Shown here: positions 4,280 to 23,094 of the stretch, piece by piece
Layout: each line of letters begins with the position of its first letter
How positions within the stretch are numbered: position 1 is the stretch's first letter
Assembly: GCA_947459165.1 (NCBI GenBank)
Contig: CANHCW010000003.1
Coordinates: 1-40,871, forward strand
Reading direction: 5' to 3'
Length of the DNA: 40,871 bases
Source: Flavobacteriales bacterium
GTDB lineage: Bacteria > Bacteroidota > Bacteroidia > NS11-12g > UBA955
The notes under the pieces: generated by a model
The model's database searches: none
Told to the model about the DNA's origin: nothing
The model's input: the letters and a program-made list of their open reading frames with translations, nothing else
Made by a program: the position numbers and the translations under genes

Positions 4280-4381
4280 GGGGCGAAGATAAACAATACG
4301 AATTAATGACTGATGGCAAAGTACGCTTCAGCTTGCCCACAGCCGCTTGTGCTTCGAATTGCATGCCTTAAATTCGCAGTC

Positions 4382-6475
4382 ATGCCCGGTTTTCTCGATA
4401 CCCCCGTTGAGTTCCTCAAAGGCGTAGGACCGCAAAGGGCCGACGCACTGAAAACCGAACTGGGCATTCAAAGCATTGGCGATTTGCTCATGCATTATCC
4501 GGCAAGGCACGAAGACCGTTCCCGCATTTATAAAATTGCCGAATTAGGCAAAGCCGATGCGGGTGTTCAAGTTTCAGGTGTCATTACCCATATCGATTTA
4601 ATTGGCGCGGGGCCCGGAAGGCGCTTTGTGGCCAATATCAAAGACGAAACAGGCAATTTACAACTGGTTTGGTTTCAGGGAATTCCCTGGGTGGCCAAAT
4701 CCGTTAAACCCGGAGACCGCTATCTGGCCTTTGGTCGTTTAAACGACTACAAAGGCCGAATCAGCATGGCTCATCCTGAGTTGGAAAGCAACGCACAGGC
4801 AATCGCACCCAAGGGCTTGGTTCCAGTTTATCCGCTTACCGATGGCATGCGCCGCAAAAAGCTGGAAAACCGCTTCATGGTTCAAATGGTTCAAACCATT
4901 TTCAACGATCCCCGCTTCGATGTTCCCGAAAACCTGCCCCCTGCCCTACTCAAAGAATTTCAGCTTTTAGACAGAAAAACAGCCCTCAGGCAATTGCATT
5001 CGCCCTCCGATTTAAAAAGTCTGGAAAAAGCCCAGCACCGCCTCAAATTCGAGGAATTGTTTTATCTGCAACTCCGTCATCTTCAGTTAAAAACAAACCG
5101 CAACCGCACCATAAAAGGCCTGGTTTTTAGTGAAGTAGGAGATCATTTCAATACATTTTATAAGGAATTCCTGCCCTTTGAACTCACAGATGCACAAAAG
5201 AATGTCCTGCGCGAAATAAGGGCAGACATGCGCACCGGACGACAAATGAACAGGCTGTTGCAAGGCGATGTAGGCAGCGGCAAAACCATTGTGGCGCTGC
5301 TGAGTATGCTGCTGGCGGTTGATAATGGATATCAGGCCTGCGTTATGGCTCCTACCGAAATTCTGGCGGCACAGCATCACCTTAGCCTTAGCGAAATGCT
5401 TGAAGGCATGAACATTAAACCGGTGCTGCTTACAGGCAGCACCACAAAAAAAACAAGGAAAGCCATTCTCGAAAACCTAAAAAGTGGCGAAATTCCATTT
5501 CTCATTGGAACGCACGCCCTCATTGAACAGGATGTGGAGTTCAAGAATCTGGGCCTCGTAGTGATTGATGAACAGCACCGTTTCGGGGTGGCGCAAAGAG
5601 CTCGGTTGGCTTCAAAATCATCCACGCCTCCCCACATTCTGGTGATGACAGCAACACCCATTCCCCGCACACTGGCCATGACCGTTTACGGCGATTTGGA
5701 TGTTAGTGTGATTGATCGTTTGCCCGGAGGCAGAAAACCCATAATTACCGCTGCACGACACCATAGTACCCGCCCTTTGATAATGGATTTTCTGAAAAAG
5801 GAAATTGCAGCAGGACGGCAGGTTTACTATGTATTTCCACTCATCGAAGACAGTGACAAACTGGAGTTGCAAAGTCTTATGTCGGGTTACGACATGGTAA
5901 CAGAATTTCTTCCCACACCTGATTTTAAATACAGCATTGTGCATGGCCGCCTCAAACCCGATGAAAAGGAGAACGAAATGCACAAATTCCGCAATGGCTT
6001 AACCGATATAATGATTGCCACAACCGTGATTGAAGTGGGAGTGAATGTTCCCAATGCCACAGTGATGGTGATTGAAAATGCAGAAAGATTCGGGTTGGCA
6101 CAACTGCATCAGTTGCGCGGCAGGGTTGGGCGCGGCGGCAACCAAAGTTATTGTGTGCTGGTAGCAGGAGGCAAACTCAGCGAAAATGGGAAAAAACGCC
6201 TGGATACGATGGTGAGAACAACAGACGGGTTTGAAATCAGCAAGGTAGATTTGGAACTTCGCGGCCCGGGCGAAATGGATGGAACCCGTCAAAGCGGACT
6301 GCTGGAATTGAAACTGGCCGATATTCGATACGATGAAAACCTGCTTGTGCTGGCCCGCAACAAAGCCGAAGATTTACTGAACGACGATCCCCTGCTTATG
6401 AAACCTGAACATTTCGGGGTCCGGCAGGAATTGGCTAAAACCCCGCACAGAACGGTGTGGAGTAAAATTGCCTGA
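4382..6475 (+). CDS. recG: ATP-dependent DNA helicase RecG
   Basis: LKGVGP, GDVGSGKT, DEQHRFGV, MTATPIPRT, QLRGRVGRG; start placed at ATG 4382 after TAAATTCG (ORF track opens at 4313). Confidence 0.96.
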   Translation: MPGFLDTPVEFLKGVGPQRADALKTELGIQSIGDLLMHYPARHEDRSRIYKIAELGKADAGVQVSGVITHIDLIGAGPGRRFVANIKDETGNLQLVWFQGIPWVAKSVKPGDRYLAFGRLNDYKGRISMAHPELESNAQAIAPKGLVPVYPLTDGMRRKKLENRFMVQMVQTIFNDPRFDVPENLPPALLKEFQLLDRKTALRQLHSPSDLKSLEKAQHRLKFEELFYLQLRHLQLKTNRNRTIKGLVFSEVGDHFNTFYKEFLPFELTDAQKNVLREIRADMRTGRQMNRLLQGDVGSGKTIVALLSMLLAVDNGYQACVMAPTEILAAQHHLSLSEMLEGMNIKPVLLTGSTTKKTRKAILENLKSGEIPFLIGTHALIEQDVEFKNLGLVVIDEQHRFGVAQRARLASKSSTPPHILVMTATPIPRTLAMTVYGDLDVSVIDRLPGGRKPIITAARHHSTRPLIMDFLKKEIAAGRQVYYVFPLIEDSDKLELQSLMSGYDMVTEFLPTPDFKYSIVHGRLKPDEKENEMHKFRNGLTDIMIATTVIEVGVNVPNATVMVIENAERFGLAQLHQLRGRVGRGGNQSYCVLVAGGKLSENGKKRLDTMVRTTDGFEISKVDLELRGPGEMDGTRQSGLLELKLADIRYDENLLVLARNKAEDLLNDDPLLMKPEHFGVRQELAKTPHRTVWSKIA

Positions 6476-6599
6476 AGAATTATTTGATCTGATCGGTTCA
6501 GTTCAAAAATGTAAATGTTGCTATTTTATCTAAATTTTTACCTAATTATGTCGATACTTTGCGAAATTTTATATTATTGCACCTCAATATCTACAAGTT

Positions 6600-7517
6600 A
6601 TGTCAAAAGCACTTATTCTAAGCGGGGGCTCCATAAAGGGCGCATGGCAAGCCGGTGCTGTGAAGGCTATATTCGACAAGGGGCTAACTTTCGATGCCAT
6701 TCATGGCGTAAGCGTGGGCAGTTTGAACGGAAGTTTTATTTGCCAGGAGGCGGCAAAACAAAATCTGCCGCTTGAAACACTTGACTGGGGTCAACTGGGA
6801 GCCGCACTTGTGCAGTTCTGGAAAAACAACATCAAAGAGCCGAATAACATTGCTAAAGAGAGAAAATGGCATCAAACACTGATTTCGGTTTTGCGAAACA
6901 GATACAACGGCCTGGTTGATACCACACCCTTGCAGGAACTTGTTAAGCGCACCATCAATCCGGCCGTATTACAGCAATCACCCATCAAACTGACTGTAGG
7001 TGCAGTTAATTTGGCTAGCGGCAACAACGAGTTTCCCGGCCCGGGCGACCCCAATTTCATTGATTACCTGATTGCAAGCACAGCCATACCCATTATTATG
7101 CCGGTTCAATACATTGCAGGCAATAAAAACAGAGCCTACTTAGACGGAGGAATCCGGGATGTAGCTCCTATCGGAAAAGCTATAGATGCAGGCGCCGACG
7201 ACATTGTATGTGTGTTATGTCAAAGTCGCGAAACCACATCCAATTTCGATCCAGGAAATTTGATGAGTCTGGCCGACCGAGTGATGGAAATTGTGGTGAA
7301 CGAAATTGTAAACAACGATATCCAACGGGCACAGGAAATAAACAAGCAACTGGCTGCAGGTGGCAACATGGTAGGTAAAAAAGAGGTGAAAATTACGGTT
7401 ATCCGACCCAGACAACCTATCGGGCTGGATCTTTCCAATTTCAACTCAGGCCAAATTGAAGATACGATCAATTCCGGATACGATACGGCCAATTCCATAT
7501 TAGATGAGCAGTCATGA
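6600..7517 (+). CDS. Patatin-like phospholipase
   Basis: Gly-rich LSGGSIKG, nucleophile elbow GVSVG, ASTAIP, catalytic DGG; no signal peptide. Confidence 0.92.
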   Translation: MSKALILSGGSIKGAWQAGAVKAIFDKGLTFDAIHGVSVGSLNGSFICQEAAKQNLPLETLDWGQLGAALVQFWKNNIKEPNNIAKERKWHQTLISVLRNRYNGLVDTTPLQELVKRTINPAVLQQSPIKLTVGAVNLASGNNEFPGPGDPNFIDYLIASTAIPIIMPVQYIAGNKNRAYLDGGIRDVAPIGKAIDAGADDIVCVLCQSRETTSNFDPGNLMSLADRVMEIVVNEIVNNDIQRAQEINKQLAAGGNMVGKKEVKITVIRPRQPIGLDLSNFNSGQIEDTINSGYDTANSILDEQS

Positions 7518-8212
7518 GTAAAGACATAGATAAAAGAACCTACCGCAGAATCAGAACTGCCATCGGAATCATTGGCTTTATTCTTCCCCTGTCTCTTATC
7601 ATTGGTACTGAGGTTGCCTTTTTTCAAACAGACAAAAAGCCCTCAATCAGCCATTATTATTACTCCAATTTCCGCGAAATATTCACGGGATCTTTGTGCG
7701 CTGTTGGTCTGTTCATGCTGCTTTACAGGGGTTATGGCAATGCCAAATGGTGGAAAAACGACAAATTGCTTACCAACATTGCCGGATTAATGGCTTTCAT
7801 CGTGGCGTTTATACCCACAGAACCTAAAAGTGGAGACACACATTTGTACAGCTTAATTCCCAACTACCACCAAAATATGAACTGGATTCACCTAGGCAGT
7901 GCCTCCATTTTGTTCATCTCCTTTTCAATACTCTCTATTTTTGCTTTTACCGAAGGTTCCAAAATGGAAACTTCACCCGGAATGCTTCACGAAAATAAGA
8001 TTTACCGTTTTTGCGGTTTGGGCATAGTAGCAAGCATTCTGGTAATCTTTATTTTTATGAAAAATAATCGTTTGGAAAAAATGGTGCCGCATATGACTTT
8101 GTATATGGAAACTCTGGCCCTGTTTTTCTTCGCTACTTCGTGGCTGATTAAAGGAAGAGGCTTGGGAGACAAAGGGAAACTGGGCAGAATGATTTATTCC
8201 GAAAACAATTAA
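7514..8212 (+). CDS. Uncharacterised multi-pass membrane protein (~6 TM; DUF998/Frag1-DRAM-like fold suspected)
   Basis: About six hydrophobic segments, SISHYYYS loop motif after TM1, intramembrane His (WIHL) and Glu (YMETL); ATGA overlap with patatin stop. Family call is a recollection, not a search result. Confidence 0.7.
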   Translation: MSKDIDKRTYRRIRTAIGIIGFILPLSLIIGTEVAFFQTDKKPSISHYYYSNFREIFTGSLCAVGLFMLLYRGYGNAKWWKNDKLLTNIAGLMAFIVAFIPTEPKSGDTHLYSLIPNYHQNMNWIHLGSASILFISFSILSIFAFTEGSKMETSPGMLHENKIYRFCGLGIVASILVIFIFMKNNRLEKMVPHMTLYMETLALFFFATSWLIKGRGLGDKGKLGRMIYSENN

Positions 8213-8216
8213 ATAA

Positions 8217-8675
8217 ATGGAATGGCTGAATAGTATACGAGACCTGGCAGACATCATTGCGCGATTAACCGATTACAGCCGGGGGAACAAGGCAGTTCGG
8301 GCTCAACTGGTTAGAGAGTTAAAAATAAACCTGAAGGCATTTGAAGTGCAGCGAAGAAGGGCCAACACAGACTACGATCTGCTCTTAAACCAACTTTCAA
8401 ATAAGGTGATTCGCAAACAGTTTGATAGTGGCTACAGTTTTAGCCGGGTAAAAAACGGAACCATACAAGCCTACCATATTCACGACTTAAGGAATAGAAA
8501 ATACATTGGTAGAGACTGCAGGTGGATGTTTGAACATATTGATTTAAAGATTGTAGAGCTGCATCTTATGCGTGAATCGTTGGGCAGCTTAAACCATATT
8601 CAAGGGGTAAACATGGCTTTACAGTTTTCAAATCTCTACCACCGTATTCGCGTGCTTGCTGACTTTATTTGTTGA
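8217..8675 (+). CDS. Hypothetical protein (basic, predicted helical)
   Basis: 152-aa ORF starting 4 nt after the TM gene stop, same strand; no recognisable motif. Confidence 0.7.
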   Translation: MEWLNSIRDLADIIARLTDYSRGNKAVRAQLVRELKINLKAFEVQRRRANTDYDLLLNQLSNKVIRKQFDSGYSFSRVKNGTIQAYHIHDLRNRKYIGRDCRWMFEHIDLKIVELHLMRESLGSLNHIQGVNMALQFSNLYHRIRVLADFIC

Positions 8676-8805
8676 TGTAAGGCAGATATTTCCGGGTTTC
8701 AATCCAGTCTGTTTTACTCATTTGCGGCTGTAATTCTTAGACGATCAAACCGGCTTTTTCATCGATACATTTGAATAAGGTATTTTCTCTTTAAAAAACA
8801 TAATA

Positions 8806-8813
8806 TACCTTCG
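8806..8813 (+). promoter_or_regulatory. -7 promoter element for the riboswitch-containing transcript
   Basis: TACCTTCG, identical to the element upstream of the 33.3-kb ATPase; implies a TSS near 8818, exactly where P1 starts. Confidence 0.55.
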
Positions 8814-8817
8814 AACC

Positions 8818-8912
8818 ATCATCAAGATTACGCCAAGTGCGCCAACCGAGTTCGACTTACCACGGTGGCAAAATGATGAGGACAAATCCGTCAAAACCCA
8901 AATACAAAGTCG
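8818..8912 (+). ncRNA. SAM-I/IV-like riboswitch aptamer (variant)
   Basis: P1 UCAUC(8819-23)/GAUGA(8875-79); J1/2 AAGA; P3 GCC-AA-CCG(8841-48)/CGG-U-GGC(8863-69); P5 GGA-CAAA-UCC(8880-89); pseudoknot CGACUU(8853-58)/AAGUCG(8907-12). Confidence 0.7.
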
Positions 8913-8951
8913 TGATTTTGATTTGATACAATGATTGTAATTTTTGACATG

Positions 8952-9003
8952 ACGGCATTCGACTTAGTCGCCATAAAAAGGGATTGAAGTCGATTGCCGT
9001 TTT
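8952..9003 (+). terminator. Terminator-like hairpin of the riboswitch expression platform
   Basis: ACGGCATTCGACTT (8952-65) pairs 13/14 with AAGTCGATTGCCGT (8987-9000), followed by a short T run. Confidence 0.55.
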
Positions 9004-9025
9004 ATCCCTAATTTCACGGCTGTAA

Positions 9026-9766
9026 ATGAGCAGGTTGTTTTTTGAACTGGGCAGGTACATTCTGTTTATGCGCAGTATGTTTTTCAAGCCGGAACGATTC
9101 AGGGTATTTTTGGAAAGAACCATTCACGAAATGAACAACATCGGGGTGGGTTCTTTGGGAATTGTAACCATTATTTCGGTGTTTGTGGGTGCTGTAACCA
9201 CCCTACAAACCGCATATCAGCTTGTTTCACCCCTGATTCCTCTGAAAGTCATCGGCACCATTGTTTCCGACAGCTCACTGCTTGAATTTGCACCTACCAT
9301 CACCTGCCTGGTACTTGCCGGCAAAGTGGGCGCAAACATTGCTTCAGAAGTGGGCAACATGAGGGTAACCGAACAAATTGATGCGCTGGAAGTGATGGGC
9401 ATTAACAGCAGCGGCTTTTTGGGTTTGCCCAAAATCATTGCCGGGGTAATTATGATTCCCATGCTAATTATCATTGCCAACTTTTTAATGATAGGCGGCG
9501 GAATTCTGGCGGCAAGACTCACCGACCTAATGCCACCCAATGAATTCATTCAGGGAGCCAGAGAAACTTTCAAATTGTTTACTGTTTCAGTATCTATGAC
9601 CAAAGCGCTGGTATTTGCTTTCATTATAACAAGTATGAGCACATACGAAGGTTACTATACTGAAGGCGGTGCACTGGAAGTAGGAGAAGCCGGAACACGC
9701 GCCGTAACCCGTGCCTGTGTGCTGATTCTTTTTTCCGATTTCATCATTGCCAAACTAATGCTGTAA
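9026..9766 (+). CDS. mlaE: MlaE family ABC transporter permease
   Basis: EFAPTITCLVLAGKVGANIASEVGNMRVTEQIDALEVMG and GGALEVGEAGT signatures. Confidence 0.92.
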   Translation: MSRLFFELGRYILFMRSMFFKPERFRVFLERTIHEMNNIGVGSLGIVTIISVFVGAVTTLQTAYQLVSPLIPLKVIGTIVSDSSLLEFAPTITCLVLAGKVGANIASEVGNMRVTEQIDALEVMGINSSGFLGLPKIIAGVIMIPMLIIIANFLMIGGGILAARLTDLMPPNEFIQGARETFKLFTVSVSMTKALVFAFIITSMSTYEGYYTEGGALEVGEAGTRAVTRACVLILFSDFIIAKLML

Positions 9767-9769
9767 ACA

Positions 9770-10504
9770 ATGATTGAACTGGTAAATCTCAACAAAACTT
9801 TCAGAGACAAACAGGTGTTGTTTGACATCAACGCAAGGTTTGAACCCGGATTAACCAACCTGGTAATTGGTGCCAGTGGCGGGGGCAAATCGGTATTGTT
9901 GAAATGTATGGTTGGCCTGATTAAACCCGAAAGCGGAAGCATCAATTACGACGGGCGCGATTTTGTGCATTTGCCTTATGAGCAGGTGCGTGAAATCAGG
10001 CGAGAAATTGGCATGCTCTTTCAGGGAACGGCCTTATTTGATTCTCTCACGGTGGAAGAGAATGTGGAATTCCCTTTAAAAATGTTCAGTAAAATGGCTC
10101 CTTCGGAACGAAAAGACAGGGTGAATTTCTGCCTCAGCAAAGTGGGATTGGAAAATGCCAACAGCAAATTTCCTGCTGAAATTTCAGGAGGGATGAAAAA
10201 ACGGGTAGGTATTGCACGCGCCATTGCACTGGAAACCAAATACCTTTTCTGCGACGAACCCAACAGCGGACTTGACCCTATAACCAGCCGCAGGATTGAC
10301 GAATTGCTGCACGATATTACCCGCGAATTCAATATCACCACCATCATCAACAGCCATGATATGAAAACGGTTTATGACATTGGCGAATCCATCACTTTCA
10401 TCTATCAGGGTAAAATATGGTGGCAGGGTCATCGCAAACAAATTGACGAAACGCGCAAACACAACCCCGAACTGGATGCCTTTATATCGGCGAGTCAGTT
10501 TTGA
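9770..10504 (+). CDS. mlaF: MlaF family ABC transporter ATP-binding protein
   Basis: Walker A GASGGGKS, signature ISGGMKKRV, Walker B FCDEP; directly after mlaE. Confidence 0.9.
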   Translation: MIELVNLNKTFRDKQVLFDINARFEPGLTNLVIGASGGGKSVLLKCMVGLIKPESGSINYDGRDFVHLPYEQVREIRREIGMLFQGTALFDSLTVEENVEFPLKMFSKMAPSERKDRVNFCLSKVGLENANSKFPAEISGGMKKRVGIARAIALETKYLFCDEPNSGLDPITSRRIDELLHDITREFNITTIINSHDMKTVYDIGESITFIYQGKIWWQGHRKQIDETRKHNPELDAFISASQF

Positions 10505-23047: not shown

Positions 23048-23066
23048 ACTGCTCATTCACTCCAAG

Positions 23067-23094
23067 AAAAGCCGCTGCCTCAGCGGCTTTTTTT
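23067..23094. terminator. Bidirectional intrinsic terminator
   Basis: AAAAGCCGCTG-CCT-CAGCGGCTTTTTTT between the convergent Reeler and mltG genes. Confidence 0.85.

Follow-up and report, generated by a model that had tools for sequence, protein, structure and literature searches.

A SAM-I/IV aptamer and an exceptionally stable hairpin upstream of an MlaE-family permease gene in a Flavobacteriales bacterium: a possible orphan riboswitch unit

The window analysed here, a stretch of 40,871 nucleotides from a Flavobacteriales bacterium (contig CANHCW010000003.1), carries a SAM-I/IV aptamer and, behind it, the most stable local hairpin of the whole stretch, both located in front of an MlaE-family permease gene and for the most part within a recent insertion specific to this species. 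This arrangement is read here, tentatively, as an orphan riboswitch transcript of about 185 nt with a largely ligand-independent terminator, mlaEF being expressed from a promoter of their own. Transcription would start at about 8818-8822, pass through the aptamer and run into the hairpin at 8951-9001, and most transcripts would stop near 9003-9008 or bear a strong 3' structure. The product would be a noncoding, SAM-binding RNA of about 185-190 nt, which would make the locus an orphan riboswitch unit. The mlaEF genes would be transcribed mainly from a proximal promoter (-7 box at 9009-9016), as probably also in relatives that lack the riboswitch. Because the short U tail may permit some read-through, SAM would at most modulate mlaEF and would not gate them. 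The elements of this region are the following:

8806..8813, + strand: -7-type promoter box TACCTTCG, directly 5' of the aptamer
8814..8908, + strand: SAM-I/IV aptamer (Rfam RF01725, 46.2 bits against a gathering score of 41.1)
8851..8859, + strand: element A, the P3-loop 9-mer TTCGACTTA, whose core (8853-8858) pairs with B
8907..8912, + strand: element B (AAGTCG), pseudoknot 3' strand, 14 nt past P4
8911..8927, + strand: anti-aptamer element CGUGAUUUUGAUUUGAU, complementary to P1-5'/J1-2/P2-5' (8818-8832)
8951..9001, + strand: hairpin with A' (8958-8966) and B' (8987-8993), then UU(U)AUCCCU; putative terminator, -25.9 kcal/mol alone
9009..9016, + strand: -7-type box TAATTTCA, putative proximal promoter of mlaE, 17 nt upstream of its ATG and 5 nt past the T run

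The Rfam scan returned SAM-I/IV as the sole family in the window, and the SAM aptamer claimed in the first-pass annotation was confirmed by this match above the gathering score. The copy of RF01725 is unique in the genome (2.28 Mb, 85% complete). According to the cmscan alignment and the prefix folds, P1 (8819-23:8875-79, 5 bp), P2 (8829-31:8837-39), P3 (8841-44:8866-69 plus 8846-48:8863-65, 4+3 bp) and P4 (8881-83:8890-92, 3 bp) were all present together with the conserved junction sequence, which is the four-helix arrangement of the SAM-I/IV class. P2 is weakened to 3 bp, including one G.U, and has one pair fewer than the copies in the metagenome contig L170 and in the closest relatives' aptamers (L082 type). 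The core motifs AUCAAGA, CCAACCGAG, ACGGUGG, GAUGAGGAC and GUCAAAA were identical to those of 80 metagenome copies (80 of at least 121 stretches), and it is solely from this conserved core that we infer SAM binding by the predicted aptamer. RF01725 corresponds to the 'SAM-I-IV-variant' of Weinberg et al. 2010 (PMC2864571), and the P1-P4 layout, which the 80 metagenome copies also have, the conserved core and a P2 without internal loop agree with this class.

The aptamer class is thus already known, whereas its context is atypical. In place of the methionine/SAM gene that usually follows members of the class, the permease gene mlaE and an ABC ATPase gene are located downstream. The best NCBIfam match of the ATPase was MetN, which scored 167 bits (cut-off 499.7) and was one of 176 generic ABC matches; no function is read from it. 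Unlike other SAM-I/IV copies, the window haplotype has a weakened P2, the pseudoknot strand lies 14 nt past P4, a distance that is about 5-10 nt where the pairing is clear, and a hairpin with a copy of the P3 loop replaces the usual anti-P1 element plus sequestor hairpin. Upstream of the aptamer, TACCTTCG at 8806-8813 is presumably a Bacteroidota -7 box, the consensus of which is TAnnTTTG. In the SAM-I/IV copies of relatives this position is taken by TATATTTG, TACATTTG or TAATTTTG, and the exact TACCTTCG or TAACTTCG occupies the box position in many metagenome copies.

The pairing of A with B as a pseudoknot had been proposed from the letters alone, and comparison with other members of the class bears it out. 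CGACUU (8853-58) and AAGUCG (8907-12) form six Watson-Crick pairs, which is the P3-loop:3'-tail contact of the class. In the closest aptamers (L082 type, 81-84% identity to 8817-8896), the tail strand CAAAGT is the aligned counterpart of B. The contact is of the same type as PK-2 of SAM-IV, in which the P3 loop is joined to the 3' end (PMC6890682). Loop and tail covary clearly in L148 (AAACACG/CGTGTTT, 7 bp), L115 (GGAAC/GTTCC) and L100 (AACA/TGTT). Across 56 distinct pairs, the loop/tail helix score had a mean of 3.49 for cognate and 3.39 for non-cognate combinations, and 47 of 2000 permutations reached the observed value, which suggests a modest family-wide pairing signal.

The region behind the aptamer contains the repeats on which the first-pass annotation had built a strand-swap platform. 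The pair TTCGACTT (8851-8858 and 8958-8965), the AAGTCG pair (B at 8907-8912, B' at 8987-8992), CCGTCA (8888-8893), TGACGG (8950-8955) and TAATTTCA (9009-9016) were all found as it had placed them, and direct reading extended the first identity to the 9 nt of TTCGACTTA, element A at 8851-8859 being equal to A' at 8958-8966. This was also the longest run common to the P3 loop (8849-8861) and 8913-9025, a length that mononucleotide shuffling matched 11 times in 5000. When 63 distinct SAM-I/IV loci were compared, with the window and L170 counted as one entry, the window type had a P3-loop copy of 9 nt and the other 62 had copies of 3-7 nt. A chance origin of the 9-nt copy is unlikely; it speaks against the orphan-unit reading, which gives the copy in the 5' arm of the hairpin no function. 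By a rough estimate, the 6-nt complementarity CCGTCA:TGACGG is unremarkable. The platform was also considered as a duplicate of the 3' half of the aptamer, and this was rejected: the local alignment score of 25 (reached by 8 of 1000 shuffles) was driven by the 9-mer, and the alignment entered sequence homologous to the mlaE leader of relatives.

The hairpin formed by A' and B' is real and exceptionally stable. The segment 8950-9004 folded at -26.2 kcal/mol and ranked first among 27,212 windows of 55 nt on both strands of the 40.9 kb (mean -8.9, s.d. 3.9), and the hairpin was present in the minimum-energy and centroid folds. It had been described as a 14-bp stem followed by a T run; the arms 8952-8965 and 8987-9000 were found, with 13 Watson-Crick pairs and one U.U mismatch instead of 14 bp. 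The T run spans 9000-9003. Since T9000, and in the minimum-energy fold also T9001, pairs inside the stem, only 2-3 U follow it (UUUAUCCCU), in line with the earlier caveat that the U-tract is short. A simple terminator scan of 8400-9300 returned no sites and did not call the hairpin. Given this and the tail of 2-3 U, termination may be inefficient. The one canonical-looking intrinsic terminator of the window is located at 23064-23094 and has a 14-pair stem, a T7 run and an A tract upstream, in contrast to 9000-9003. In the platform of the relative L117, UUUU alone is found where L083 has UUUUUU.

No second copy of the hairpin was detected in its own genome, where the search gave only 16-19-nt matches (E >= 0.06), and a repeat element was ruled out on this basis. 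Likewise, no homologue of 8909-8993 was found in the same-genus genomes, the own genome or the genome contigs. A 12-codon ORF starting from the ATG at 8949 was noticed by eye and was discarded as a gene for want of support.

The first-pass annotation had warned that mlaE could have its own promoter, and comparison strongly supports this caveat. The motif TAnnTT[TC][AG], counted up to 45 nt upstream of the start of the tblastn match, occurred in 63 of 79 loci of mlaE relatives in any upstream context, against 7.4% of random 48-nt windows from the same loci, the genomes being related and the counts therefore non-independent. In the closest relatives, TAATTTTA is located at -18 or -17, matching TAATTTCA at -17 in the window. 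As TAATTTCA differs from TAnnTTTG at two positions, the proximal promoter of the window is possibly weaker than those of the relatives.

The stretch was present in 20 sequencing runs from 12 studies, mainly of freshwater DNA. One metatranscriptome (RNA-library run X20) contained a 192-nt contig with one mismatch and a depth of 2.4, which covers 8840-9031 and reaches 28 nt beyond the T run. This contig falls below the 31-letter rule for bridging the T run and might reflect DNA carry-over; if derived from RNA, it is compatible with some read-through. Two other X20 contigs over mlaE were about 87% identical and hence came from other organisms, and the absence of same-strain X20 cover over the body of mlaE is no evidence in either direction. 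Contig 10 of run X13 matched 8768-8896 at about 89%, with the remainder unlike the window, which hints at a related aptamer elsewhere.

Comparison with relatives placed the riboswitch in a species-specific insertion of about 2.5 kb. The genes and segments concerned are the following:

4313..6475: recG (NCBIfam RecG, 868 bits, cut-off 711)
6476..8993, + strand: species-specific insertion between recG and mlaE
6600..7517: patatin-like phospholipase (E=3.7e-24 in Pfam; weak PADLOC match to 'Effector, phospholipase', E=4.4e-6)
7514..8212 and 8217..8675: two ORFs without family, inside the insertion
9026..9766, + strand: MlaE-family permease (Pfam MlaE E=5e-64; NCBIfam matches below curated cut-offs)
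9770..10504, + strand: ABC ATPase (Pfam ABC_tran E=3.8e-31; NCBIfam matches below curated cut-offs)

Among 10 aligned relatives, seven (L001-L006 and L008) had the recG 3' end of the window and about 55 nt from its stop codon to mlaE, and L007, L016 and L018 had different DNA upstream of mlaE. The segment from 6476 to about 8993 stands in place of about 22 nt of the relatives' recG-mlaE spacer. Homology to the relatives resumes at about 8994, within the 3' arm of the hairpin, and the lower 3' strand (8995-9000) is the homologue of their spacer; the riboswitch and most of the hairpin are located at the right end of the insertion. A blastn search with 6500-9025 gave no match in 11 same-genus genomes, and the ORF at 8217-8675 had no match in 190 other genomes of the order, being found only in its own genome among the 191 searched. 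No convincing repeats were detected at the ends of the insertion. A recombination tract extending into mlaE was considered and rejected, as identity to the relatives was flat (about 0.67-0.84 per 60-nt bin). The phospholipase and the two family-less ORFs (6600-8675) may represent a small defence-type or variable island.

The association of the riboswitch with mlaE was seen in this species only. Seven of 61 genomes, the window's own included, have a SAM-I/IV match, and none of the 11 same-genus genomes does. No SAM-I/IV at gathering score preceded mlaE in the 40 scanned of 80 mlaE-relative loci, the other 40 being mostly from Chitinophaga. Other copies of the family precede metK (L085, NCBIfam 536 bits; L088, L089 and L091, by-eye reading of the N-terminus) or small ORFs, never mlaE, and some of the relatives' copies precede a 93-aa ORF without Pfam family. 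In four contigs (L098:1001-1200, L129, L150 and L167), a SAM-I/IV aptamer is located about 85 nt upstream of a same-strand tRNA-Cys(GCA) gene, which could be a case of a riboswitch before a tRNA gene. The genome G051, from a sister family, has five SAM-I/IV copies (L087, L090, L092, L093 and L094) located 54-55 nt before small ORFs starting with MKSxIKLSFK.LE.

The platforms of other family members are built on an anti-P1/J1-2 element and not on the pseudoknot strand. The element at 8911-8927 of the window resembles these anti-P1/J1-2 sequences, most metagenome copies having UUCUUGAUG and the metK leaders GGUCUCGUG. The metK leaders L084, L085, L088, L089 and L091 share the conserved GGGUCUCGUG, with a U run behind it, at a distance of about 90-180 nt from the aptamer; this sequence is complementary to the J1/2-P2 5' strand CACGAGACC and is overlapped by a GUGUUUU/AAAACAC hairpin. 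In L083:10-160 and L117, the arm adjacent to the U-tract pairs with the P3 strands of the aptamer in the minimum-energy fold, and if this arm is a terminator, the logic would be SAM-ON, even though the ORF downstream in L083 and L117 is homologous to that of the L082 type, in which the pseudoknot strand abuts the AUG.

The coupling between aptamer and hairpin was evaluated by nearest-neighbour folding of 8814-9001, with prefix and constrained folds, in a model that ignores pseudoknots, ligand, Mg2+ and polymerase kinetics. The minimum (-52.6 kcal/mol) contained the aptamer and the hairpin side by side, and the bound-like state, with the aptamer forced and the pseudoknot strands blocked, had -43.2 kcal/mol and retained the hairpin. 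Forcing B:A' gave -30.5 kcal/mol, 22.1 above the minimum, with a direct-path barrier to the full hairpin of 3.8 kcal/mol; forcing CCGUCA:UGACGG gave -43.5 kcal/mol, 9.1 above the minimum, with a barrier of 0.9. The two helices cross each other, so that they could not be combined in one nested structure. The ligand-gated antiterminator of the first-pass annotation did not survive this analysis: both 6-bp complementarities exist, but they appear 9.1 or 22.1 kcal/mol too costly, and no antiterminator able to compete with the terminator was found in the energy model. In prefixes 8958-8992, the unconstrained fold kept 8950-8959 paired in CCGUCA:UGACGG and AAU:AUU, and under the bound-like constraint this strand was free; the upper stem nucleated regardless, and the lower stem took over by prefix 9000.

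The strongest alternative to the aptamer was the anti-aptamer helix 8818-32:8911-27 (11+4 bp, duplex -12.5 kcal/mol), which was the minimum-energy fold at prefix 8930 and coexisted with the hairpin (-50.7 vs -52.6 kcal/mol). A long-range helix that pairs P2 (8828-39) with 9015-25 was also seen when the full length was folded to minimum energy; it was set aside, being worth only about 2 kcal/mol and lost in haplotype L170. In this model, it looks as if the hairpin formed in every state, with the aptamer folded or not, and a kinetic effect at the weak U tail is possible.

Such a kinetic effect is what a SAM-OFF attenuator of mlaEF would depend on, a rival reading that is doubtful but has to be taken seriously. 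In the presence of SAM, B would be held in the pseudoknot with P4 folded and A':B' would terminate transcription; without SAM, B:A' or CCGUCA:UGACGG would delay the hairpin past the short U run. The topology fits this scheme, and the loop copy A' is non-random by both counts given above. Since 8950-8959 is held in the unconstrained minimum and free in the bound-like state up to prefix 8992, the two states would differ in the lower-stem strand at the moment of decision. The weak U tail would make termination sensitive to small delays, and partial read-through would fit the X20 contig, which extends to 9031. Against it stand the cost of both antiterminators, the low barriers of 0.9 and 3.8 kcal/mol and the crossing of the two helices; the upper stem nucleates freely and would serve as a toehold displacing CCGUCA:UGACGG. 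The family couples via anti-P1/J1-2, and the corresponding element of the window (8911-8927) never touches the hairpin. Moreover, mlaE has a conserved proximal promoter box, its association with the riboswitch is limited to one species and, to our knowledge, SAM and the Mla system have no known functional link. The attenuator is kept alive mainly by the non-random 9-nt loop copy and the weakness of the U tail.

Classic examples of SAM-I terminators and antiterminators come from Bacillus. The window shares with the SAM-I (S-box) OFF platforms, as PMC10853860 describes them for SAM-I variants, the order of aptamer, hairpin, U run and ORF, and a terminator 5' arm that complements a 3' strand of the aptamer. 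Unlike the window, these platforms switch via the 3' side of P1, and an antiterminator of comparable strength covers the left shoulder of the terminator (PMC10853860). The candidate strands of the window form 6-bp helices that fall 9-22 kcal/mol short, and its U run has 3-4 nt.

Another explanation, which we consider unlikely, is that the locus is a decaying relic, the aptamer having arrived with the inserted DNA after loss of its original downstream ORF, with no useful SAM binding and with a hairpin and repeats that have no present regulatory role. The case comprises one species and two nearly identical haplotypes, the second being the metagenome contig L170, which has the same locus with 99.05% identity over 7842-9109. 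L170 was the only other copy of the locus type among the metagenome matches listed (80 of at least 121 stretches), and a scan of genome contigs for the locus type gave three L082-type copies only. In the P2 5' strand, the GC of L170 and the L082 type is replaced by UU in the window (G>U and C>U), and P1 of L170 has A>U where the window and the L082-type outgroup have A. With the outgroup showing A, G and C, each haplotype would thus carry a different derived, stem-damaging change, in P1 or P2, as expected for a relic. The scores point in the same direction, the window copy being the lowest of 14 copies in the 61 genomes searched, with 46.2 bits (46.1 for L170) against 48.5-60.8 for the relatives' copies. 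Homology to the nearest (L082-type) aptamers ends at 8896, the 93-aa ORF downstream of them was not found in the 85%-complete genome of the window with that query, and the neighbouring genes of the island have no detectable relatives.

However, both haplotypes remain above the Rfam gathering score and the promoter box is intact. Among the 12 differences between the window and L170, 11 are located within 8660-8829, whereas 8830-9084 is identical, the switching helices included. Debris would also be an unlikely account of the most stable hairpin of the 40.9 kb, located beside a significant 9-nt copy. The clustering of 11 of the 12 differences found in 1268 aligned nt within 170 nt resembles a recombination patch ending inside the P2 loop.

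It also seems improbable that the locus is a switch based on the pseudoknot and not on P1. In such a switch, the 9-nt repeat in the 5' arm of the terminator would act as a decoy P3 loop, and element B would pick either the aptamer loop (SAM, termination) or the decoy (no SAM, read-through). A DNA-level element, in which the inverted repeat on the right-hand border of the insertion would be a recombination or attachment site and not an RNA structure, is hardly credible: the 3' arm of the hairpin does straddle the point where homology resumes (about 8994), but the left junction has no matching repeat, the genome holds no further copy and the insertion encodes no recombinase.

The orphan-unit reading has a counterpart among known regulators. 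The Listeria RNAs SreA and SreB are riboswitch-derived small RNAs located upstream of the genes that they normally regulate and have demonstrated targets in trans. The window would resemble them in having a SAM aptamer, its own promoter, a terminator and a short stable transcript, predicted here from sequence alone.

If the pseudoknot-decoy switch were true, an Mla-type operon would be governed by methyl-donor status in a freshwater Bacteroidota lineage. A strand swap, if real, would give the SAM-I clan a platform of unusual design and would connect SAM with outer-membrane lipid transport, which would be unexpected. If the orphan-unit reading holds, the locus would be a snapshot of riboswitch turnover, in which a known aptamer moved together with a small variable island to a position before an unrelated housekeeping operon that retains a promoter of its own, and it would be a caution against inferring regulons from adjacency only.
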